A stretch of 64,000 nucleotides of DNA from contig CALXZB010000002.1 of assembly GCA_944393125.1 (NCBI GenBank), positions 2,412 through 66,411 of the forward strand. Reading direction: 5' to 3'. Under the pieces are notes generated by a model. That model made no database searches and was not told the origin of the DNA. It was given only the letters and a program-made list of their open reading frames with translations. This document shows, piece by piece, positions 2,772-47,674 of this stretch; the stretch's first letter is position 1; the number at the start of each line of letters is the position of its first letter. A program made the position numbers and the translations under genes. This stretch comes from an uncultured Clostridia bacterium. GTDB taxonomy: Bacteria > Bacillota > Clostridia > TANB77 > CAG-508.

Positions 2772-4070
2772 TTATGCATTATTTTCATTTTTATAAGCTT
2801 TTACTTTTAAAATTCTTTTGTCTTCATATTCTTCTATCTTAAAAATTAGTTCTTCTGTTTCTATTACAGGATTTTCTTCATCTGTTGGAATTCTTCCTAG
2901 TTCTTCTTGTAAATATCCTGATAATGTATCATAATCTCCTTCTGGAATATTTGAAGACAATAACTTATTTACGTCATAAATTGGCATACTTCCTGATAAA
3001 ATATAAGTATTATCATCTATTTTTTCATATTCTTCTTCAATGTCATCATATTCATCAAAAATGTCACCAACTATTTCTTCAATAATATCCTCCATTGTAA
3101 TCAACCCAGCAGTTCCGCCATATTCATCTACTACAATTGCCATATGTTTTTTGTTTTTTTGTAATTCTTTTAATAATTCATTTATTAATTTATTTTGAGA
3201 TACAAAATATGCTTCTCTAACTATATTTTTTATTTTAAATGTTTTTTTATTAATATTTTTTATTATATCTTTTACATATAAGACACCTTTAATTTCATCT
3301 ATTGTTTCTTCATATACTGGTATTCTGCTATGCTTACAATCGTCTTTTATTATTTCTTCTAATAATTCACTTGGGCTCATATTTATATCAACAGCAAACA
3401 TATCTGTTCTATGTGTCATTATCTCTGAAGCTGTTATATCATTAAATTCAAACACATTATTTATAAGTTCTTTTTCTTCTTCCTCTATTGTACCATTTTC
3501 TTCACCTTGATCAACCATCATCTTTATTTCTTCTTCTGTAACTACTTCTTCATCATTTTCAGTAACTCCGAATAATTTAGAGATTGCATTTGTTGTAATT
3601 GTTAGTAATTTTACAAATGGTGAAGTTAAAGTTGATATTACTCTTATTATTCCTATTGTTGCAAAAGCTATTTTTTCATACTCCTTCATCGCTAACCTTT
3701 TTGGGACTAATTCTCCAAAAATAATTGTAAAAAATGATAATATAATTGTTATAAATACTATTGATATACTTTTCCAAATTCCTATCCCTATAGGGAATAT
3801 ATTATTTAAAGTTGGTGCAAGCATGTCTGCAAAAGTATCTGATGCAAATGCACTAGATAAAAAACCTGCTAAAGTAATTCCTATTTGTATAGTAGATAAA
3901 AATTTACTTGGATTTTCTAACATTTTATGAATTTGCTTTGCTTTTTTATTTCCTTCTTTTGCTAGTTTTTCTATTTTGTTATCATTTAATGAAATAAATG
4001 CAATTTCACTTGCCGCAAAAAATGCATTCAATCCTATTAATATTACTAATACTAAAATTTGTATTAACAT
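2772..4070 (-). CDS. Hemolysin-family membrane protein (CNNM/DUF21 transmembrane domain + CBS pair + CorC_HlyC C-domain, TlyC-like)
   Basis: The 432-aa ORF has an N-terminal multi-TM region (MLIQILVLVILIGLNAFFAASEIAF), central CBS-like repeats and a C-terminal CorC/HlyC-type domain (GRIPTDEE...ILKVKA). Confidence 0.75.
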   Translation of the reverse strand: MLIQILVLVILIGLNAFFAASEIAFISLNDNKIEKLAKEGNKKAKQIHKMLENPSKFLSTIQIGITLAGFLSSAFASDTFADMLAPTLNNIFPIGIGIWKSISIVFITIILSFFTIIFGELVPKRLAMKEYEKIAFATIGIIRVISTLTSPFVKLLTITTNAISKLFGVTENDEEVVTEEEIKMMVDQGEENGTIEEEEKELINNVFEFNDITASEIMTHRTDMFAVDINMSPSELLEEIIKDDCKHSRIPVYEETIDEIKGVLYVKDIIKNINKKTFKIKNIVREAYFVSQNKLINELLKELQKNKKHMAIVVDEYGGTAGLITMEDIIEEIVGDIFDEYDDIEEEYEKIDDNTYILSGSMPIYDVNKLLSSNIPEGDYDTLSGYLQEELGRIPTDEENPVIETEELIFKIEEYEDKRILKVKAYKNENNA

Positions 4071-37085: not shown

Positions 37086-37230
37086 TTTTCTCCTCCTCTT
37101 TTCTTTCTTTTTTTAGTATATCATTTTGTTATTTTTTTGTCTAGATTTTTATTTTAAAATACCAAAAATCTCCATTGATTATTTATACAGAAAATTATAC
37201 AATTTATTTAGTAGGGGGATAAAATTATTT

Positions 37231-37713
37231 ATGAAAAAAAACAGAGAATTTTGGATAATAGTTAAAGATATATTAAGTAATGAAACAGTTCAAAGCTTAC
37301 AAATTTATAAACATCACTATGGATCTAATCGTTATGAGCATAGCCTTTCTGTTGCTTATTATTCTTACAAAGTTTCTAAATTTTTAGGACTTGACCATGT
37401 TTCTTGTGCAAGAGGTGGCTTACTTCATGATTTATTTTTGTATGACTGTAGAGATTCAAATGCTAAACCAAAAAATCACATTAAAGAACATCCTAAAACA
37501 GCACTAGATAATGCAAAAAAATTGTTTATTTTAAATGACATTGAAGAAGATGTTATTTTAAAACATATGTGGCCTATTACTTTTTCTAAACCTAAATATT
37601 TAGAAAGTTTTACCGTTACTTTTGTTGATAAATATTGCTCTATTAAAGAATTTTTTGATTATACTAAATATGTTTTATGGAACTGGTATTTTTCAATGCT
37701 TTACATAGAATAA
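37231..37713 (+). CDS. HD-domain phosphohydrolase (160 aa)
   Basis: It has an H...HD metal-binding pattern (YEHSLSVAYY ... GLLHDLFLYD). AGGGGGA lies upstream of the ATG at 37231. The longer ORF-track start is rejected. Confidence 0.7.
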   Translation: MKKNREFWIIVKDILSNETVQSLQIYKHHYGSNRYEHSLSVAYYSYKVSKFLGLDHVSCARGGLLHDLFLYDCRDSNAKPKNHIKEHPKTALDNAKKLFILNDIEEDVILKHMWPITFSKPKYLESFTVTFVDKYCSIKEFFDYTKYVLWNWYFSMLYIE

Positions 37714-37880
37714 TTTCGTTTATTTTCTTCTTCGCCCTCAGTTCCAGTTGTTAATGTGACTTAATAATAAACTGTATTTTCAGGTTTTTTAGCAACAAAG
37801 TCAACTTCTAATTCATCATATTTTCCTATGAAAAATATAATTCCAGACTATGCATTACATTTGAATTTTAGAATGTCTTA

Positions 37881-37950
37881 TAAAGTTTACAAATTATTCA
37901 CATAAAATTATAGTAATTTGACAATATTTATGATATACTATTTATAAATT
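37881..37950 (+). promoter_or_regulatory. Promoter/operator repeat copy A. It has a 41-nt core identical to copy B, contains the TTGACA and extended -10 TGaTATACT elements, and has an imperfect inverted repeat tacaaatta/taatttga.
   Basis: The 41-nt stretch taaagtttacaaattattcacataaaattatagtaatttga is identical at 37881-37921 and 38690-38730. The next 28 nt are ~80% identical. It lies 20 nt upstream of the P1 ATG. Confidence 0.5.
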
Positions 37951-37969
37951 TAAAAGAGAGGAGAATATT

Positions 37970-38182
37970 ATGTCAAAAGTAATAGACAGAATGCAAAAGA
38001 TTGTTTCTGAACTTCCTCAAGATTACTTTGACAACATGGATGAATATGCAACAGTAGGCGCACTTATTGATTTATATTTAAAGAAATATGGTGAAGATGA
38101 AACAACTTTAATTCCAGGTACAAATACACATATGAATTATGAATATTTTAAAAATCTTTATAATAAGTTTAAAAAAAATTAG
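37970..38182 (+). CDS. Small protein P1 (70 aa), paralogue of P3
   Basis: It has an RBS (AGAGAGGAGAA). It shares the pattern MS..ID....K.I.SLP.D...........KKY.E with P3. Confidence 0.5.
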   Translation: MSKVIDRMQKIVSELPQDYFDNMDEYATVGALIDLYLKKYGEDETTLIPGTNTHMNYEYFKNLYNKFKKN

Positions 38183-38194
38183 GAGGTTAAAAAT

Positions 38195-38383
38195 ATGTTT
38201 TTTTTACAAAATGCATTAAAATCAATTAATTTACAAAATGATTCTTTATATGATTTTCTTTATGATATGGTCTTATTTATAGGATTACAAAAAAGTGAAG
38301 AAGATATTAAAAATGGTAGAGTTATGACTATTGAAGAATCAAAGGAAAGGATGAAAGTTACTTATGAATATCTTGATATCTGA
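38195..38383 (+). CDS. Small protein P2 (62 aa), paralogue of P4. Its C-terminal motif G..xT.EE is typical of TA antitoxin tails.
   Basis: AGGAGG lies 8 nt before the ATG, which is 12 nt after the P1 stop. It has YDFLYDMVLFIGLQKSEEDIKNGRVMTIEE, which compares with P4's YDCLYNLYVLLGIVKGVNEINLENGIPLDD. Confidence 0.5.
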   Translation: MFFLQNALKSINLQNDSLYDFLYDMVLFIGLQKSEEDIKNGRVMTIEESKERMKVTYEYLDI

Positions 38384-38689
38384 AAGTGCTCACCAAAATA
38401 TTAGTAATATATAATTATGTATTTTATTTCTGAAAAAGAAAATTTTATTAATATTCGTTATGTTTTAAGTGATAGGCAAAATCGTACTCAATTCTTAGAA
38501 TTACATAAAAAAGAAATTTTTGATATCATAAATTTTTTAAATCAATTTATTTAAATCCCGTTTTGAATAAATCCCAAAGTCACTACATATTTTCAAGTTT
38601 TTTCAAAATTATGCAAAAACTTTGTATTTTTGTATATTTTTTCATTTTAATAACTCAATTATAATATAGCATTCTTTTTATATCTCACT

Positions 38690-38759
38690 TAAAGTTTACA
38701 AATTATTCACATAAAATTATAGTAATTTGAGTATATTTATGTTATACTATTAGTATATT
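38690..38759 (+). promoter_or_regulatory. Promoter/operator repeat copy B (extended -10 TGtTATACT)
   Basis: See copy A. It lies 18 nt upstream of the P3 ATG. Confidence 0.5.
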
Positions 38760-38776
38760 TTAATGAAAGGAGGTTT

Positions 38777-39004
38777 ATGATGTCAAATATTAATGATAAT
38801 TTTATAAAAGCTATTGGATCGTTGCCTTATGACATTGATGAAGAAATAAAAATTAAAGATATCATTGTAATTCTTCAAGATGTAACAAAAAAATATATTG
38901 AACTTTTTGGAACTAACGATTTAAATGAAAATGATAAGACATGCATTCAAAGTATTTTGACTGCCCATACAGCACAAAATATATTGCAAGAAAAAAATAA
39001 CTAG
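38777..39004 (+). CDS. Small protein P3 (75 aa), paralogue of P1. It is the first gene of a P3-P4-ParE cassette.
   Basis: The RBS is AAAGGAGG. It starts MMSNINDNFIKAIGSLPYDIDEE. Confidence 0.5.
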   Translation: MMSNINDNFIKAIGSLPYDIDEEIKIKDIIVILQDVTKKYIELFGTNDLNENDKTCIQSILTAHTAQNILQEKNN

Positions 39005-39021
39005 AAAGGATTGATTTTAAT

Positions 39022-39243
39022 ATGAAAGAACCTAACGAAAAAATTCAAATAGAAAAAATTGTTGATATGCTAAAAAATTCAGAGCAAAATGTAACATTTT
39101 ATGATTGTCTTTATAACTTATATGTACTATTAGGTATTGTCAAAGGTGTGAATGAAATTAATTTAGAAAATGGTATTCCTTTAGATGATTTTTTGACAGA
39201 AAGAGAGGCTTTATATGAAAATTATAATAGAAAATCTAGCTAA
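39022..39243 (+). CDS. Small protein P4 (73 aa), the putative antitoxin partner of the downstream ParE/RelE toxin
   Basis: It lies immediately upstream of the toxin gene and overlaps it by 29 nt. Its C-terminal NGIPLDDFLTEREA resembles ParD/RHH-antitoxin C-terminal tails. There is no recognisable RHH N-terminus. Confidence 0.5.
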   Translation: MKEPNEKIQIEKIVDMLKNSEQNVTFYDCLYNLYVLLGIVKGVNEINLENGIPLDDFLTEREALYENYNRKSS

Positions 39244-39559
39244 AAAAGGACTCGATGATATATTTTGTTATAATATACAATATTCTATAGAAAATGCTAT
39301 AAATACCGATTATGCTATAACTGAATATATTAAAACTCTAATTACTTCCCCATATATTGGAAGATGCATTCCAGAGATGAAAAATAATCATTTTAGGGAA
39401 ATTATATATCAAAAGAATCCAAAATCTTCATATCGTATTATGTATTACATACATGATTCTAAAAATTCTATTCATATCTTTAATATTATGAATTCTAAAC
39501 AAGATTTTAATCATATTTTAACAATGCACAATTATTTCCAAAACTATTTTGAAATTTAA
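39215..39559 (+). CDS. ParE/RelE-superfamily type II toxin (114 aa)
   Basis: It has ENLAKKGLDDIFCY near the N-terminus. It has LITSPYIGRCIPEMKNNHFREIIY in the middle. It ends with SYRIMYYIHDSKNSIHIFNIMNSKQDF. These match the RelE/ParE pattern A..DL..I..Y ... P..G......R......YRIIY.v.......I.rI.H.kd. Confidence 0.7.
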   Translation: MKIIIENLAKKGLDDIFCYNIQYSIENAINTDYAITEYIKTLITSPYIGRCIPEMKNNHFREIIYQKNPKSSYRIMYYIHDSKNSIHIFNIMNSKQDFNHILTMHNYFQNYFEI

Positions 39560-39697
39560 TCAATATTCATTACACTTTTTTATTTACACATACTAATCTT
39601 AAAAAATATTTAATCTTATTAATAATATTTTTCACAAAATAAAACAAGGCAGAAAACCTTAAATTTTCCACCCCGTTATTGAAATATATTCAATTAT

Positions 39698-42600
39698 TTA
39701 TTCATTTACTGTTTCAGTAACTACTTCATTATTTTCAGTTGAAGTTTCTTTTTCGTCTTCTCCTTCAACTTTAATTTGTACATCTTGATATACTTTCATA
39801 CCAGTACCTGCTGGGATAAGTTTACCAATAATTACATTTTCTTTTAGTCCAATTAAGTCATCTTCTTTACCTTTAATAGCTGCTTCTGTTAATACTCTAG
39901 TTGTCTCTTGGAATGAAGCTGCAGACAAGAAGCTATCTGTTGCTAAAGATGCTTTAGTAATACCTAGTAATACTCTCTTACCAGTTGCAATACGTTTTCC
40001 TTTTTCTTCAGCCTTTTTATTATTTTCTTCAAAGTCATACATATCAACTAAAGAACCTGGGAACATACCTGTATCTCCGCCATCTTCAACTCTAACTTTT
40101 CTAAGCATTTGTCTTGCAATAACCTCAATGTGTTTATCATTAATATCAACACCTTGGTTTCTATATACTTTTTGAACTTCAGAAATTACATATTCATAAA
40201 CTCCTTCTGGTCCTTTAATTGCAAGTATTTCAGCTGGATTTATAGAACCTTCTATAAGTGGTTGTGCAGCTTTTACTTCATCTCCATCTTTTACTTTTAA
40301 TTTTGAACCAAATGGTATAGTATATGTTCTAGAATCATCTTTAGATGTAACAATAATTTCTTTTTTCTTCTTTGTTTCAGAAATTTTAACTTTACCATCA
40401 ATTTCTGTTATAACAGCTAATCCCTTTGGTTTTCTAGCTTCAAAGATTTCTTCAACTCTAGGAAGACCTTGAGTGATATCTGCAACACCTGCAACACCAC
40501 CAGAGTGTATAGTTCTCATGGTTAACTGTGTACCAGGTTCACCAATTGATTGTGCTGCTATAATACCAACAGATTCTCCTATTGAAACTTCTTCTCTTCT
40601 TGCTAGTCCCATACCATAACATTTTTGGCATACACCATGCTTACTTCTACATCCAATTACTGAACGAACATAAACTTGTGTTATACCAGCATCTACTATT
40701 TGTTTTGCTATATTTTTATTTATCATTGTATTTGTATCTACAATCAATTCTCCTGTTTCAGGATGTACTATATCATTTAATGGGAATCTACCTTCTAATC
40801 TTTCTTCTAGTTTTTCAACTACTTGATTTCCATCTTTAATATCTTCTAGCATTAAACCTTCATGTGTTCCACAATCATGTTCTCTTACTATTATGTCTTG
40901 TGATACATCAACAAGTCTTCTTGTTAAATATCCAGAGTCAGCTGTTCTTAAAGCTGTATCTGATAAACCTTTACGTGCACCATGTGAAGAAATGAAATAT
41001 TCTAGAGCATCTAGTCCTTCACGGAAACATGATTTTATTGGTATTTCAACAGCTTTACCAGTAGTACTTGCCATAAGTCCACGCATACCTGCAATTTGTC
41101 TTAATTGGTTCATATTACCACGGGCTCCTGATTTAACCATCATATATATTGGGTTTAAGTCATCAAAATTTTCTTCCATTGCCTTACTTACATCGTTTGT
41201 AGCTTTATCCCAAATATTAACAACTGTTTTATATCTTTCATCATCAGTTATCAAACCTCTTCTATATTGGTTTCTAACTTTTTCTACTTGTTTTTCAGCA
41301 TCTGCTAATATGTCTTTTTTTGCAGCAGGTACTTCAACATCTGCTACTGAGAATGTAATACCAGCTAATGTTGAATATTTGAATCCTAATTCTTTAATAT
41401 AATCTATTACTTCTGCTGATTCAGTTAAGCCATGTTTTTCTATAACTTTATCTATTATTGTACCCATTGATTTTTTCATTACAGGAAAATCTATTTCATA
41501 TTGGAATGGATCTTCGTTTCTATCTATAAATCCTAAATCTTGTGGAATACCTTGGTTAAATATAATTCTACCAACACTTGTAGGGATTTTCTTTGATTTC
41601 ATTTCGCCATTTATCTCTTTTGTTATTTTTACGAAAATCTTTGCATGTATTCCTACTGCATTATTTTGAAATGCCATTATTGCTTCATCAGGATCTTTAA
41701 AATATTTTCCTTCTCCTAATTCACCATCTAATGTCATTGTTAAATAATAGCTTCCTAAAATCATATCTAGTCTTGGTACTGCAACTGGCTTACCATCTTG
41801 TGGTTTTAATAAGTTATTTGTAGCTAACATTAAATATCTTGCTTCCGCTTGTGCTTCTGGTGTTAATGGTAAGTGAACTGCCATTTGGTCACCATCGAAG
41901 TCTGCATTAAATGCTTCACATACTAATGCATGTAGTTTTATTGCTCTACCTTCTACTAAAACAGGTTCAAATGCTTGAATACCTAATCTATGTAATGTTG
42001 GAGCACGGTTAAGCATTACAGGGTGGTCTTTAATTACTTCTTCAAGTATTCCCCATACTTCTGGGCTTAATCTTTCTACCATTCTTTTTGCACTTTTTAT
42101 ATTATGTGCCATATGTCTTCCAACTAATTCTCTCATTACAAATGGTTTGAATAATTCAATAGCCATTTCTTTTGGAAGTCCACATTGATATATTTTTAGT
42201 TCTGGTCCTACAACAATTACAGAACGTCCTGAATAGTCAACTCTTTTTCCTAATAAGTTTTGACGGAATCTACCTTGTTTTCCTTTTAATAAATCAGATA
42301 AAGATTTTAAAGGTCTGTTTCCAGCTCCTGTAACAGGTCTTCCTCTTCTTGAATTATCTATTAATGCATCTACTGATTCTTGTAACATTCTTTTTTCATT
42401 TCTTACAATAATCTCTGGTGCACCAAGTTCAAGTAATCTTTTTAATCTATTATTTCTGTTTATTACTCTTCTATATAAGTCATTTAAGTCTGATGTTGCA
42501 AATCTTCCACCATCTAATTGCACCATTGGTCTTAAATCTGGTGGAATTACTGGTACAACATTCATAACCATCCATTCAGGTCTATTCCCTGATTTTCTAA

Positions 42601-43249
42601 ACGCCTCTACTGTGTCTAACCTTTTAACTAGTTTTGCTTTTCTTTGTTCACTAGCAGATTCTAAATCCTTTTCAATTTCTGCAGTTAATTTTTCTAAATC
42701 TATTTCTTCAAGTAATTTTCTTATTGCTTCTGCACCCATTTCAGCTTTAAATGATTTTTTACCATATTTTTCTTCTGCTTCATGATATTCTTTTTCATTT
42801 AAAACTTGAGCTTTTTCTAGTCCTGATGTTCCTTTGTCTGTAACAATATATGATGCAAAATATATTACTTTTTCAAGATTTCTTGGTGATATATCTAGCA
42901 TTAATGCTATTCTACTTGGAATTCCTTTAAAATACCAAATATGTGCAACTGGTGCAGCTAATTCAATATGTCCCATTCTCTCTCTTCTAACTTTTGATTT
43001 TGTTACTTCAACACCACATCTATCACAAACAATTCCCTTATATCTTACTCTTTTATATTTACCACAATGACATTCCCAGTCTTTTGTTGGTCCAAATATT
43101 TTTTCACAGAATAAACCATCTTTTTCTGGTTTTAATGTTCTATAATTTATTGTCTCAGGTTTTTTTACTTCACCTTTTGACCATTCTCTTATCTTTTCAT
43201 CTGATGCAATTCCTATTTTTATTTTGTTGAATATCTCTAATTCTTCCAT
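39698..43249 (-). CDS. rpoC: DNA-directed RNA polymerase subunit beta'
   Basis: The 1183-aa ORF has the zinc finger [21 protein letters not shown], the NADFDGDQM catalytic motif and overall collinearity with RpoC. Confidence 0.95.
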
Positions 43250-43365: not shown

Positions 43366-43896
43366 TTATTTTTCTAATTCTTGCATTTTTAACACTTTTT
43401 CTATTGCTAACATAATATTTATTTTATCTACTTCTTGTTCTCTAAGAGTAAATTTACTTTTTAAACTGTCAGCTGTAACTTTTACTTTTTGTTCTTCTAG
43501 TTCTTTTGCATATGTGTTTACTCTATCTACAAACATTTGCAATGTATCACTAGCTCTTTTATGTGCTTCTCTATCAGTTTCTCTTTGTATTCTAAAAAGT
43601 CTACTATATTTTGCTATAATATTTCCTTTTTCGTCAATTCCAAACTCATAATTTTCTCCAGATAAAAGTTCTTTAATATATTGTGCAATTTGTTGTTTAT
43701 GCATTTGTAAGCCTAAATTGTTTGCAATATAATCTACTATTTCAACTAAGTTTATACTTTCTCCATTTTGAGGATTAATTTCATCAATTCTTCTAAATAA
43801 TTGTTTTTTTATAGATTCTTGGGCTATTTCTATTTGGCCTTGATCATCTTCTTCATATCTTAGTCCTCTTAAAAATTTTTGATTTCCCTTAAACAT
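43366..43896 (-). CDS. Hypothetical charged, helical protein (177 aa from MFKGNQ) encoded between rpoB and rpoC
   Basis: A 546-nt open frame in AT-rich DNA. GGAGGA lies 7 nt upstream of the second ATG. It is 31 nt downstream of the rpoB stop and co-oriented with rpoB and rpoC. The sequence is coiled-coil-like (…EELEEQKVKVTADSLKSKFTLREQEVDKINIMLAIEKVLKMQELEK). Confidence 0.6.
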   Translation of the reverse strand: MFKGNQKFLRGLRYEEDDQGQIEIAQESIKKQLFRRIDEINPQNGESINLVEIVDYIANNLGLQMHKQQIAQYIKELLSGENYEFGIDEKGNIIAKYSRLFRIQRETDREAHKRASDTLQMFVDRVNTYAKELEEQKVKVTADSLKSKFTLREQEVDKINIMLAIEKVLKMQELEK

Positions 43897-43927
43897 TTCA
43901 ACATCCTCCATTTTGTCAACAAGTCTA

Positions 43928-46900
43928 TTACATTATATCATTTTCATCATCTAGATTATCTTCTGCTAAATCATTATCATAAATACTTTCTTCATCTTCT
44001 AAGTCATCATCAAACAACTCATCACTATCTTCATCATCAAGCATTTCTTCATCTGCTTCTGAGTAGCCATCTTCAAGTTCTTCATGAATAAGCACATCAT
44101 CTTCTGTTAGTGCTCTTCCTTCTGCTGTTTCATCATATTCAATTCCATCTTCAATATTTTCTTTTAGTTCAAGTTCTTCATTATTATCAGCAAATAATTT
44201 TATATCTAGACCTAATGCTTGAAGTTCTTTTACTAAAACTTTAAAGCTTTCTGGAACTCCTGGTTCAGGAATATTTTCTCCTTTAACTATAGCTTCATAA
44301 ACTTTTACACGTCCAATAGTATCATCAGATTTTACTGTTAATATTTCTTGTAGTGTATAAGCTGCACCATAAGCTTCAAGTGCCCAAACTTCCATTTCTC
44401 CAAAACGTTGTCCACCAAATTGTGCTTTACCTCCAAGTGGTTGTTGTGTTACTAATGAGTATGGTCCTGTTGAACGAGCATGTATTTTATCATCTACTAA
44501 ATGATGTAGTTTTAACATATACATTACTCCTACAGTTATTGGACTTGCAAATGGTTCTCCTGTTCTTCCATCATAAAGAATAGATTTACCATCTGGTGTT
44601 AATCCAGCTTCTTGTAATAATTCTTCAATTTCTTTTTCTGAAGCTCCATCAAATACAGGTGTTGATATTTTATATCCTAATGCTCTAGCTGCTGCACCTA
44701 AGTGAACTTCTAATACCTGTCCTAAGTTCATACGTGATGGTACACCTAATGGGTTTAGTAATATGTCTATTGGTGTTCCATCTGGTAAGAATGGCATATC
44801 TTCTGTTGGTAATATTCTTGAAATTACACCTTTATTACCATGACGTCCAGCCATTTTATCTCCAACAGAAATTTTTCTTTTTGTTGCTATATAACATCTT
44901 ATTACTTGATTTACTCCAGGTCCTAATTCTTCTGAATTGTCTCTTGTGAAGATTTTTACATCTACTATAGTTCCTGCTTCTCCGTGTGGTACACGTAATG
45001 AAGTATCTCTTACTTCTCTAGCTTTTTCTCCAAATATTGCACGAAGCAATCTTTCTTCTGCTGTTAGCTCTGTTTCACCTTTTGGTGTTACTTTACCAAC
45101 TAATATATCTCCAGGTCTTACTTCTGCACCAATTCTTATTATTCCATTTTCATCTAAGTCTTTTAATGCGTCATCTCCAACATTTGGAATATCTCTTGTT
45201 ATTTCTTCTGCTCCTAATTTAGTATCACGACATTCACAATCATATTCTTCAATATGTATTGATGTAAATACATCTTCTTGTACTAATCTTTCATTTAAAA
45301 GAATAGCATCTTCATAGTTATAACCTTCCCATGTTGAGAATGCAATTAATACATTTTTTCCTAAAGCCATTTCTCCATCTTTTGTTGATGGTCCATCTGC
45401 TATAGCTTCTCCTTTTTTAACTTTTTCGCCTTTTTCTACTATTGGTTTTTGGTTAATACATGTTCCACCATTTGTTCTTTTAAATTTACGCAATTTGTGT
45501 ACAACAGTTTTTCCATTATTATATTTCATTGTTATACTGTCACCAGTAACTTTTTCTACAATTCCATCATCTTCAGCTAATACTAAGATTCCTGAGTCTT
45601 TTGCAGCTCTATATTCAATACCAGTTGCAACTATTGGTGCTTCTGTTACCATTAGTGGAACTGCTTGACGTTGCATGTTTGCACCCATTAGAGCTCTTTT
45701 TGCATCATCATGCTCTAAGAATGGTATCATTGCTGCAGCTATTGATACAAGTTGCTTTGGTGATACATCTATATATTGTACTAATTCTTTGTCAACTTCT
45801 GTTATTTCGTTTTTATGTCTTACACGTATACGTTTATTTATAAATTCTCCATTTTCATCCATTGGTTCAGATGCTTGTGCTATTATATAATTATCTTCAA
45901 CATCTGCACTCATATATTCTACAATATCTGTTACTCTATGTGTTTCTGGATCTATTTTTCTATATGGTGTTTCAATAAATCCATATTCGTTTATATTTGC
46001 AAATGAAGATAATGCAGAAATTAGTCCTATATTTGGTCCTTCTGGTGATTCTATTGGACATAGTCTACCATAATGTGTATAGTGAATATCACGTACTTCG
46101 AATCCAGCTCTTTCTCTTGAAAGCCCTCCTGGTCCTAATGCAGAAATTCTTCTTTTATGTGTTAGCTCTGAAAGTGGGTTTGTTTGATCCATGAATTGTG
46201 ATAATTGTGAACTTCCAAAGAATTCTCTTATTGATGATGTTATTGGTTTAGTATTTATCAATGTTTGTGGTGTTACAACATCTAAGTCTTGTATTGTCAT
46301 TCTCTCACGAACAACTCTTTCAAGTCTTGTTAGTCCAATTCTGAATTGATTTTGTAATAGTTCTCCTACACATCTTATTCTACGATTTGCTAAATGGTCT
46401 ATATCATCTTTTTTTCCTAATCCTTGATGTATATTTAATAAATAACTTACTGAAGCAATAATATCTTCTGTAGTTATATGTTTTGGAACTAATTCATCAT
46501 ATCTTTCACTTAAAGTTTTTACTAAGTCTTCTTCACTTGTATTTTCCATAATGTTTTTTAGCACTTCATAATTTACATTTTCTTTAAAATGTAATTTACT
46601 TAAGTCAACATTTGGTAATACTTTATAGATGTTTACTGTTCCATTTCCTATTACTCTTATTTTTTTGTCTCCAAGTTTAATATCTACAATGTTTATTCCT
46701 GCATTTTGAATGTTTTCTGCAACTTCTGGTGTTATTATTTCTCCTGCTGTTACAAATACTTCTCCTGTTTCCTTGTCCATTATGTCTTCAAATGCAACTT
46801 GATTTTTTATTCTATTTGCTATACTTAATTTTTGGTTAAATTTATATCTTCCTACTTTTGCTAAATCATATCTTCTATTGTCAAAAAATAATCCGTTAAA

Positions 46901-47674
46901 TAAACTTCTTGCAGCTTCAACTGTTGGAAGTTCTCCAGGTCTTAATTTCTTGTATATTTCTATTAAAGCATCTTCACCTGTTTTTATTGGGTCTTTTTGA
47001 ATTGTTGTTTCTAGTAAGTTTTCTTCTCCAAATAATGTTCTTATTTGGTCATCTGATATTAATCCAATTGCTCTTAATAATGTTGTTACAGGTATTTTTC
47101 TAGTTCTGTCTACACGCACCCAAAACATATCATTTCCATCTGTTTCATATTCAATCCATGCCCCTCTTAATGGCATTACTGTTGATGTATATGTTTTCTT
47201 TCCTGTTTTTGTGTCAAAAATTTCATCATAGTAGCATCCAGGTGAACGTACTAATTGGCTTACTACAACTCTTTCTGCTCCATTTATTATGAATGTTCCA
47301 CTTTCTGTCATTAGTGGAAAATCTCCTAAGTATATTTCTTGTTCTTTGATTTCACCTGATTCTCTGTTTATTAATCTTACTTTTACATGTAATCTTGTTG
47401 AATATGTTGCATCTCTTTCTTTTGCCTCTTCCTCTGTGTATTTTGTTTTGTCTTCCATGTAATAATCGAAGAATTCTAATACTAAGTTTCCTGAATAGTC
47501 AACTATAGGTGAAATATCTTTTAATACTTCTCCAAGTCCTTCTTCTACAAACCAGTCATATGAATCTTTTTGAACTTTGATTAGGTTTGGCATTTCAATA
47601 TAATCGCCAACCTTTGAAAAATCCTTACGAGTTGTTCTTTCGAACTTAACTTCTTTGATTTCCAAACAAATCAC
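43928..47674 (-). CDS. rpoB: DNA-directed RNA polymerase subunit beta, with a long acidic C-terminal tail
   Basis: The 1248-aa ORF has conserved RpoB blocks (e.g. [30 protein letters not shown]). The last ~90 aa are D/E-rich. Confidence 0.95.

Follow-up and report, generated by a model that had tools for sequence, protein, structure and literature searches.

A probable pair of adjacent three-gene ParE toxin-antitoxin modules, one with a disrupted toxin gene, in an uncultured Clostridia bacterium

INTRODUCTION

To our knowledge, very few examples of tripartite ParE systems are known. Two paralogous copies of such a system, paaR2-paaA2-parE2 and paaR1-paaA1-parE1, are carried by the genome of E. 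coli O157:H7, each with three co-oriented genes and the ParE-family toxin last (PMC4803016, PMC8630535). In the tripartite type II systems pasABC (plasmid pTF-FC2) and SpoIISABC (Bacillus), the third small protein aids or duplicates neutralization and is not a regulator (PMC4803016, PMC4926146).

Here, we describe a locus within a 64,000-nucleotide stretch of DNA from an uncultured Clostridia bacterium (contig CALXZB010000002.1; the whole stretch is referred to as the window), which is probably composed of two adjacent members (types C1 and C2, corresponding to cassettes 1 and 2), long diverged from each other, of one family of three-gene ParE modules, with the genes designated A, B, and T. 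The likeness to paaR-paaA-parE lies in an extra first gene, a small (about 63 to 73 aa) helical middle protein without a DNA-binding domain, a ParE toxin in last position, and two paralogous copies in one genome, and the solved ParE2 structure (5cw7_B) is among the best PDB matches of the T family (E = 0.005); however, B is not homologous to PaaA, as no such homology was found when it was looked for. The third protein of pasABC and SpoIISABC could serve as a possible model for A, but these systems differ in gene order (pasC comes last, and the SpoIISA toxin is a membrane protein), have no detected sequence relationship to A-B-T, and, in pasABC, rely on PasA as a DNA-binding repressor, whereas neither A nor B has a recognizable DNA-binding domain. 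In canonical ParD-ParE pairs, likewise, the gene of the ParE-fold toxin is preceded and overlapped by that of an acidic protein of antitoxin size, whereas B lacks a ribbon-helix-helix (RHH) domain and its AF2 model is all-helical. Finally, omega-epsilon-zeta systems of Firmicutes mobile elements show a similar order of regulator, helical acidic antitoxin, and toxin, but the toxin families are unrelated (zeta kinase versus ParE), omega is an RHH repressor, and no homology between omega-epsilon-zeta and A-B-T was detected.

RESULTS

Five small plus-strand ORFs (P1 to P5), convergent with rpoC (39698-43249, minus strand), were found as the original prediction had described them. In cassette 1, A1 (P1; 37970-38182, 70 aa), encoding an acidic helical first-gene protein of the C1 subfamily, is followed by the candidate antitoxin gene B1 of the same subfamily (P2; 38195-38383, 62 aa). 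Cassette 2, also on the plus strand, comprises A2 (P3; 38777/38780-39004, 75/74 aa), encoding a compact helical protein of the C2 subfamily for which the second ATG at 38780 (74 aa) is the start position of homologues; B2 (P4; 39022-39243, 73 aa), a candidate C2 antitoxin with three predicted helices; and T2 (P5; 39215-39559, 114 aa), an intact ParE-family toxin gene whose 29-nt overlap with B2, noted previously, is evident from the ORF coordinates.

The pair P1-P2 had been taken for a toxin-less orphan or decoy duplicate, separated from P3 by a 300-bp spacer. This spacer, 3' of P2, is however occupied by an overlooked ParE toxin pseudogene (38364-38554, plus strand), and sister strains carry an intact 115-aa toxin. 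The pseudogene begins with the N-terminal 15 codons (MNILISESAHQNISN), the first 20 nt of which overlap B1; a deletion of 157 nt at about 38407/38408 then shifts the frame, and the C-terminal 45 codons (38417-38554) complete the pseudogene. Since BLASTP of the 45-aa ORF against P5 gave no significant match, the pseudogene was established by DNA alignment with the intact 115-aa genes of the related loci L009 and L015, to which the window is about 100% identical over cassette 1 except for the 157-nt gap. Judged by this alignment, cassette 1 is a full module recently disarmed by the deletion in its toxin gene; the frameshift makes the opposite course, with the 115-aa gene arising by insertion, unlikely.

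Three haplotypes were found at this one chromosomal site, namely, C1 intact and alone (L009 and L010), C1 with a deleted toxin gene plus an intact C2 (the window and 10 contigs), and, the reverse of the window, an intact C1 plus C2 with a deleted toxin gene (L015); among those sampled, no haplotype had both toxins intact. The segment missing in the single-cassette strains L009/L010 extends approximately from 38652 to 39632 (plus strand) and contains cassette 2 with its promoter, which shows the variable presence in related genomes that had been proposed as a check. The two copies had also been regarded as an old duplication in place. Because some strains lack cassette 2, and because types C1 and C2 each also occur separately in other genomic contexts, such an origin is unlikely, and the two copies probably do not represent an old in situ duplication.

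Beyond this site, the order A, B (overlapping T), T was kept in every relative examined, and the predicted architecture of three genes, two for small proteins and then one for the toxin, with the second gene overlapping the toxin gene, was real. A-B-T synteny was observed in at least 16 distinct modules from several genomic contexts, all with short gaps or overlaps (A and B are separated by 7 to 17 nt or overlap by 4 nt) and with one upstream promoter region. Among uncultured Clostridia, the A-B-ParE family is widespread: B-type sequences fall into at least 135 clusters at 90% identity, and A-type sequences into about 33 clusters at 50% identity. In a contig scan with P4 alone as the confirming query, seven loci were confirmed. 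Typically, a large serine recombinase gene lies ahead of the module, with its stop codon about 70 to 100 nt away. A remnant of about 40 nt of such a gene is kept by cassette 1 (37831-37871, plus strand), covering the last ~13 codons and the stop (..KNIIPDYALHLNF versus ..QDVIIHWNF*), with the stop removed by a 1-nt deletion, and it aligns with the 3' ends of the recombinase ORFs (521 to 551 aa) located ahead of the module in L026, L036, L051, and L033. A phage or plasmid origin was without support, given that tblastn of A against phage and plasmid collections gave no match and that no B relatives were found in IMG/VR.

One copy of a 98-nt repeat (37866-37963 and 38675-38772, plus strand; 84% identity) lies ahead of each gene pair, and direct reading showed an exact 41-nt core within it (37881-37921 and 38690-38730), in agreement with the near-identical segment and perfect core reported originally. 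A candidate promoter, TTTACA-N17-TATAGT, sits within the exact core of both copies (-35 at 37886-91 and -10 at 37909-14 in copy 1; -35 at 38695-700 and -10 at 38718-23 in copy 2). The extended -10 (TGATATACT at 37931-39 in copy 1 and TGTTATACT at 38740-48 in copy 2) and the imperfect inverted repeat (CAAATTA-N17-TAATTTG) were also present as predicted, and candidate ribosome-binding sites follow (GAGAGGAG at 37954-61 and AAAGGAGG at 38761-68). In this AT-rich region, promoter-like hexamer matches were not enriched (27 found versus 21.5 expected from shuffles). A 40-mer of the core had only two matches in the 64-kb window with three mismatches allowed (0 expected by chance), and a genome-wide repeat was rejected on this basis. 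A degenerate 22-mer had 21 matches in metagenomes, 7 of which, in AT-rich Clostridia-like contigs with downstream TAGTAATTT/TGATATACT blocks, precede A-B-T modules, while the remainder, among them a family of GC-rich contigs, matched by chance and are unrelated. Both searches support the expected specificity of the repeat to the modules. RNA explanations for the repeat were ruled out by the lack of an Rfam match at E≤1 and by leader/repeat folding no better than that of shuffles (z of -0.5 to +0.9).

The shared promoter had been treated as a peculiarity of this locus in need of a special explanation, a view that no longer holds, since the core also lies upstream of diverged C1-type and C2-type modules in other metagenomes. 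The repeat appears to be the conserved intergenic region that follows the serine recombinase gene, kept ahead of both cassettes. Between L026 and each of L036, L042, L045, L051, and L053, this region is 81 to 84% identical versus 61 to 65% for recombinase third codon positions; for L026 against L017 and L033, which have diverged intergenic regions, the value is 56 to 58%. Because L017, L033, L035, L001, and L005 are close relatives with diverged upstream regions, the conserved element is not indispensable. Moreover, L036 and L042 are 95% identical across the recombinase 3' end and the intergenic region up to a point 9 nt ahead of the A start codon, beyond which they are unrelated, so part of the promoter similarity between modules is due to recently shared element backbones and not to selection. 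Mosaicism was also evident between L045 and L051, with identities of 99% upstream, 97% in A, 69% in B, and 54% in T; here, A follows the promoter, whereas B follows T. The sharp breakpoints between promoter and A suggest that the swapping of toxin-antitoxin cargo between mobile elements is anchored in conserved regulatory DNA.

Both A and B are acidic (median pI, 4.7 to 5.1), and A, B, and T are under purifying selection (dN/dS, 0.08 to 0.53). A1 is homologous to A2, and B1 to B2, between types C1 and C2. The claim that these form recognizable paralogue pairs at the protein level stood for P2/P4, which were matched by BLASTP (37% over 30 aa, E = 6e-5) and, in a comparison of family profiles, by hhalign (E = 4e-8, 95% probability); for P1/P3, which had no BLASTP match to each other, it stood at the profile level only (hhalign, 84% probability, E = 8e-6, N-terminal 45 columns). 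Consistent with the original prediction, P1 to P4 matched no known antitoxin family, and the check for well-known families outside toxin-antitoxin biology was equally negative: comparison with Pfam, NCBIfam, PHROGs, PADLOC, and PDB placed A and B in no known family or fold, with zero PADLOC matches and nothing significant in PDB profile searches with either family. No DNA-binding fold was detectable in A (P1/P3). The suspected absence of an RHH domain from P4 was borne out by its AF2 model, which has three helices and no strand, including no N-terminal strand, and by the absence of RHH, ParD, or CopG Pfam matches in 50 B-family members. Likewise, B matched none of the ParD, Phd, and RelB families in Pfam and NCBIfam (a weak, subthreshold DUF2683 match occurred in 15 of the 50 members), and the components are indeed unlike these canonical partners. 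B is likely the antitoxin, and A would be a regulator or accessory protein, with a transcriptional (co-)regulator being the favored reading.

P5 had been called a ParE-family toxin, and it scored 26.9 bits against Pfam PF05016 ParE_toxin (cutoff, 23; E = 7.5e-6). Four P5 homologues were also above this cutoff, homologues scoring 28.7 to 43.6 bits, and P5 matched phrog_2455 (E = 1.3e-13). By its score above the curated gathering value, P5 is assigned to the ParE/RelE superfamily; T is basic (pI of about 9). The top PDB match of the T-family profile was 7etr_C, labeled RelE/StbE (E = 0.0025), and the solved ParE toxins 5cw7_B (ParE2), 7r5a, 8c24, and 3kxe ranked above E. coli RelE entries, with all PDB E values being marginal (0.0025 to 0.4). 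In PMC11980606, the Pfam ParE_toxin family is described as not splitting gyrase poisons from mRNA-cleaving members.

DISCUSSION

The account that we consider probable is that of two adjacent A-B-T type II toxin-antitoxin modules, of which cassette 1 is disarmed, with a shared promoter from the recombinase intergenic region. T would be a basic ParE-fold toxin, and B, which is small, acidic, and helical and is encoded by a gene overlapping that of T, would neutralize T by direct binding. A, a small, acidic, and compact helical protein, may act as a regulator or co-regulator at the conserved promoter, which is favored, or alternatively as an accessory helping B. In related genomes, the module would be the terminal cargo of integrative elements, and the intergenic region would provide a complete promoter of the sigma-A type (TTTACA-N17/18-TATAGT) and, after it, an extended -10 (TGnTATACT); the conserved spacers would be the presumed operator. 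Cassette 2 is intact and cassette 1 disarmed by the frameshifting deletion within its toxin gene; because the two share one promoter core, the prediction is that both are transcribed and regulated in the same way.

Two other roles for A deserve consideration. It is possible, if somewhat doubtful, that A, instead of regulating, serves as a second, accessory antitoxin or as a stabilizer that binds B and/or T, comparable to PasC and SpoIISC, with the promoter read by host factors only or not autoregulated. The same promoter stands ahead of A proteins that are merely ~25 to 30% identical, which is awkward for A as a sequence-specific binder; however, recombination has separated A from B-T and left it with the promoter (L045 versus L051), and A is always present and the best conserved of the three genes, while proteins that bind a toxin specifically tend to diverge along with it. 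Fusions of A and B do little to help the accessory role, as P0177 was found in one 1.4-kb contig only, and the widespread A::B hybrid P0201 is located in a toxin-less relic; the "Rosetta-stone" argument from P0201 was dropped because the toxin is absent at that locus. Very improbable, in our estimation, is a role for A in the mobile element, e.g., as the recombination directionality factor of the serine recombinase, with B-T as an ordinary two-gene system. At most loci, the module starts about 100 nt past the end of a serine recombinase gene, and P1 has a nonsignificant match to a PHROG recombination directionality factor (E = 0.29), both of which would fit such a role, but A is intact and under purifying selection (dN/dS, 0.14 to 0.23) where no recombinase is nearby (the window, L001, L005, and L029), is translationally linked to B by the close spacing given above, is retained with B in the toxin-less relics L004 and L015, and, in L034, has moved to another position along with a copy of the promoter that belongs to the module.

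The exact identity of the 41-nt core is unlikely to stem from recent gene conversion over a short tract between the cassettes, which lie 809 bp from each other, instead of from operator selection. The window copies are identical at 41/41 positions while the core of other modules differs at 1 to 5 positions, the C2 copy of the window reads ..TTTGA like the C1 lineage where its C2-lineage relatives (L042 and L029) read ..TTTAA, the C1 copy has AAAG.. without the extra A of its nearest relatives L039/L045/L051, and the modules are demonstrably mosaic. Against this, the core is already conserved at about 36 to 40 of 41 positions across independent elements, so that little more is needed to account for 41/41; lineage-specific differences persist in the flanks of both copies, and the 3' halves of the copies each cluster with their own lineage, which argues against wholesale local gene conversion. 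In addition, the intergenic region exceeds recombinase third codon positions in conservation in five of the seven L026 pairings.

The account of two A-B-T modules under a shared promoter leaves current understanding of toxin-antitoxin biology in place. A more far-reaching proposal, to which we assign a low probability, is that A and B are two undescribed families jointly replacing a single DNA-binding antitoxin and that the invariant promoter is a docking end for A-B-T cargo swapped by homologous recombination, with co-resident cassettes sharing one regulatory input and with A acting by a non-HTH, non-RHH recognition of DNA or RNA polymerase. If this were true, the invariant promoter beside the serine recombinase would mark a hot spot at which the mobile elements of gut Clostridia exchange cassettes of addiction or defense modules. 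In any case, the locus would define a tripartite ParE family in uncultured gut Clostridia, with two small partners that match nothing in the databases searched. Moreover, the three haplotypes at one site may be viewed as a natural experiment on the decay of redundant toxin-antitoxin modules and on possible cross-regulation of cassettes that share a promoter. As indirect evidence for a type II toxin-antitoxin function, the toxin gene has been repeatedly and independently inactivated with A-B retained (in the window, L003/L030, L004, L015, and L032), and the relic at L057-60 retains just an A::B hybrid ORF.

A three-gene ParE module and its homologues

The locus lies in a window with a G+C content of 26.9% and comprises five small plus-strand ORFs between an HD-domain gene (37126-37713, plus strand) and rpoC (39698-43249, minus strand), the 3' end of which faces them. 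These are P1 (37970-38182), P2 (38195-38383), P3 (38777-39004), P4 (39022-39243), and P5 (39215-39559, overlapping P4 by 29 nt), in full agreement with the original prediction. P5, proposed to be a ParE toxin, passed the HMM check against Pfam ParE_toxin with 26.9 bits (gathering score 23) and also matched phrog_2455 (E = 1e-13); P1 to P4, the partners left unassigned, indeed gave no matches in Pfam, NCBIfam, PHROGs, or PADLOC.

Homologues of P2, P3, and P4 were found in at least 135, 10, and 38 clusters, respectively, none with a Pfam annotation, and the homologous loci sit in MAGs of uncultured Clostridia. Their contexts always consisted of a first small protein of 65 to 77 aa (A), a second of 62 to 75 aa (B), and then a ParE protein of 113 to 115 aa (T) overlapping B, a constant synteny that bears out the proposed three-gene module. 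The modules were divided into two types, C1 (P1-P2-like) and C2 (P3-P4-P5-like), and profile-profile comparison of C1 with C2 revealed homology for A (84% probability, E = 8e-6, N-terminal 45 columns) and for B (95% probability, E = 4e-8), with no relationship between the A and B profiles. An exhaustive A profile search of 1.84 billion representatives yielded 33 clusters only, indicating that the A family is small and lineage restricted. dN/dS values of 0.08 to 0.53 across A, B, and T pointed to purifying selection, including on A at recombinase-free loci. Moreover, the toxin was lost independently, with A-B kept, in L003/L030 (stop codon), L004 (deletion), and L032 (loss), and an A::B hybrid ORF is the sole remainder of the module in L057 to L060. 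Decay of this kind, in which the toxin gene is inactivated again and again while A-B persists, is what one expects from a toxin-antitoxin module.

Several rearranged loci were also observed. The 94-aa hybrid ORF (P0201; L057 to L060, 3001-3285) consists of the first 44 residues of A fused to the last ∼50 of B and occurs, with the toxin gene absent downstream, on at least 93 contigs as a widespread module relic, while a full-length A-B fusion of 154 aa (P0177) was seen on one short contig only. L034 (2800-3930) has its genes in the order B-T-A rather than A-B-T, and the promoter segment (CTAGACAAA..ATGATATAATTTrGGTrTATTAAAAGTGATA) occurs twice, before B and before the relocated A. At L005 to L007 (135-2077), the gene for FBPase_2 (class 3 fructose-bisphosphatase) is spread over three overlapping ORFs of 118, 319, and 236 aa, and this split, identical in three independent samples, may represent a conserved pseudogene or programmed frameshifting.

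Toxin loss at the rpoC-adjacent site

The 300-bp stretch 3' of P2, formerly taken as a spacer, was found on translation to hold two ParE-like pieces, namely, MNILISESAHQNISNI*, which begins within the 3' end of P2 as P5 begins within P4, and a 45-aa ORF (38417-38554) similar to the C terminus of P5. When public assemblies were queried with the exact P1 protein, this chromosomal locus was recovered from further samples, and in L009, L010, and L015 the gene that comes after the P1-P2 pair is a ParE gene in intact form (115 aa; Pfam, 28.7 bits). DNA alignment with these sister alleles showed cassette 1 (P1-P2 and what follows) to be essentially identical in the window but for a sole gap of 157 nt, inside the toxin gene. 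Since 157 is not a multiple of three, the toxin remnant is frameshifted, which makes cassette 1 an A1-B1-pseudo-T1 module with a recent toxin loss.

Haplotype 1 at this site (L009 and L010) carries cassette 1 alone with an intact toxin, lacking cassette 2 (P3-P4-P5; ∼38652-39632 in the window) and continuing directly into the rpoC terminator. Haplotype 2 (the window and ten independent contigs) has T1 deleted and cassette 2 intact, and haplotype 3 (L015) has T1 intact and the cassette 2 toxin cut to fragments by deletions. No contig with both toxins intact was present among those sampled, which, the sample being small, is an observation rather than a rule. At the population level, the pattern is one of reciprocal toxin loss. 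While the original prediction was right in proposing a ParE toxin, a three-gene module with unassigned partners, and a specific promoter element, its view of P1-P2 as an orphan or decoy pair was wrong, because a ParE pseudogene with a 157-nt deletion relative to intact sister alleles follows the pair, and its ancient in situ duplication of the cassettes is probably wrong.

In addition, a 181-aa ORF without a Pfam match (43366-43911, minus strand) lies between rpoB (43928-47674) and rpoC, and it recurs, at 176 aa, in the sister contigs L009 to L012. It is unusual for these two genes to be separated by another.

The promoter region and its link to serine recombinases

Each cassette is preceded by a copy of a 98-nt direct repeat of 84% identity (37866-37963 before P1 and 38675-38772 before P3), the exact core of which spans 41 nt by direct reading (37881-37921 and 38690-38730). 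With three mismatches allowed, the core occurs in the 64-kb window at these two sites only (chance expectation, 0), in agreement with a specific promoter element. A promoter candidate within the core, TTTACA-N17-TATAGT (37886-37914 and 38695-38723), matches the consensus at 10 of 12 positions, and the extended -10 TGnTATACT noted originally lies 25 nt downstream of it. The hexamers are 17 or 18 nt apart among relatives, and spacer and hexamers are equally conserved, suggesting a putative operator. An RNA-level explanation of the repeat was unsupported.

When JGI metagenomes were scanned with a degenerate 22-nt version of the core, the element was found ahead of A-B-T modules of both types, C1-like in L036, L039, L040, L045, and L051 and C2-like in L042 and L053; the remaining matches were without downstream conserved blocks and without any module. 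Seven GC-rich (52 to 55%) contigs among the pattern matches (L038, L044, L046, L048, L052, L055, and L056) have a conserved stretch in common, ACaCATCTCATTTGCAAATTATTAACATAAAAACCACACTC, and after it an inverted repeat (CATCTGGTCATACCAGATCATCCCAGATG) just before an ATG; this feature is unrelated to the modules and came up solely through the degenerate core pattern.

In most loci, the module follows a gene for a large serine recombinase (521 to 551 aa; Resolvase, Recombinase, Zn_ribbon_recom, and DUF4368 domains) with a highly conserved C terminus (..DIVNSFIDYIEIGEKDK..QDVIIHWNF*), starting 70 to 102 nt past its stop codon. The window repeat is this recombinase-module intergenic region. Positions 37831-37871, 5' of cassette 1, read ..KNIIPDYALHLNF and align with the last ∼13 codons and stop of the recombinase, a 3' remnant indicating that cassette 1 is the cargo end of a mobile element that was left stranded here. 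Among C1-type loci, the most abundant (L017 to L021, 1122-5357; P0145, 474 contigs) has A-B-T between two large, convergent serine recombinase genes that encode 521 and 535 aa. In L026 to L028 (∼3510-3770), the end of the recombinase-A-B-T element adjoins a truncated Mn_catalase (cotJC-like, 84 to 86 aa), beside which L028 has CotJB/CotJA, and an intact 208-aa copy adjoins the module in L023; the L026 to L028 arrangement looks like a serine-recombinase element within a sporulation coat gene and recalls skin-type intervening elements.

Recombination and selection both contribute to the identity of the promoter region. Upstream identity was not coupled to protein identity among the modules compared: L036 and L042 are 93% identical upstream, but their A, B, and T proteins are 27%, 41%, and 44% identical. 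Aligned over L036 3121-4754 and L042 1-1654 (reverse complement), they share 95% identity starting at the recombinase 3' end and reaching to within 9 nt of the A start codon; A, B, and the first half of the T gene then show no similarity, and identity returns, at 76%, in its second half. This is a clean cargo replacement within a common backbone. The switch between L045 and L051 falls between A (97%) and B (69%). These comparisons provide evidence for cargo swapping behind a conserved promoter. In favor of constraint, identity between L026 and L036, L042, L045, L051, and L053 is 81 to 84% in the intergenic region and 61 to 65% at third codon positions of the adjacent recombinase, and the core differs at just 1 to 5 of 41 positions among independent elements. 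The intergenic region of L026 is merely 56 to 58% identical to those of L017 and L033, and upstream regions have diverged in some close relatives (L017, L033, L035, L001, and L005). The 3' half of the C1 repeat copy in the window is like L039/L045/L051 and that of the C2 copy like L029/L042; each thus resembles its own lineage, so the two were not homogenized wholesale, and a short conversion tract may have produced the 41/41 core identity.

Roles of A and B and relation to known systems

B is most readily interpreted as the antitoxin, considering its position, toxin overlap, size, acidity (pI ∼5 versus ∼9 for T), and lower conservation, all typical of antitoxins. Its AF2 model consists of three helices at moderate confidence (pLDDT 72.6), a search with it found no structural neighbor, and no RHH was detected in B; weak subthreshold DUF2683 matches over the SLKESEEDIKNGRVMTIEES motif were obtained for 15 of 50 family members. 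A may be the regulatory protein of the module, as its gene invariably comes first, it shows the highest conservation among A, B, and T, and it cosegregates with the promoter across recombination breakpoints, with a DNA-binding domain in neither B nor T, although its charge and fold, and the service of one promoter to A proteins merely ∼25 to 30% identical, fit a regulator poorly. Alternatively, by analogy with PasC/SpoIISC (PMC4803016; PMC4926146), A could be an accessory neutralizer or stabilizer. A role in recombination directionality is unlikely, because A is kept under selection where the recombinase is absent and, in L034, took a duplicate of the module promoter with it when it moved.

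The closest analogue is paaR-paaA-parE of E. coli O157:H7, which is tripartite and ParE terminated, encodes an antitoxin that lacks a DNA-binding domain, and coexists as two paralogous copies without cross-neutralization (PMC4803016; PMC8630535). However, the module partners differ from those of that family, with no detectable relationship between B and PaaA2 and no hallmarks of a DNA-binding repressor in A. The locus probably works like a tripartite ParE system, yet it does not appear to be a paaR-paaA-parE family member. PDB matches of the toxin family include ParE2 of paaR2-paaA2-parE2 (5cw7_B, E = 0.005), and the Pfam ParE family is described as holding both gyrase poisons and mRNA cleavers (PMC11980606).
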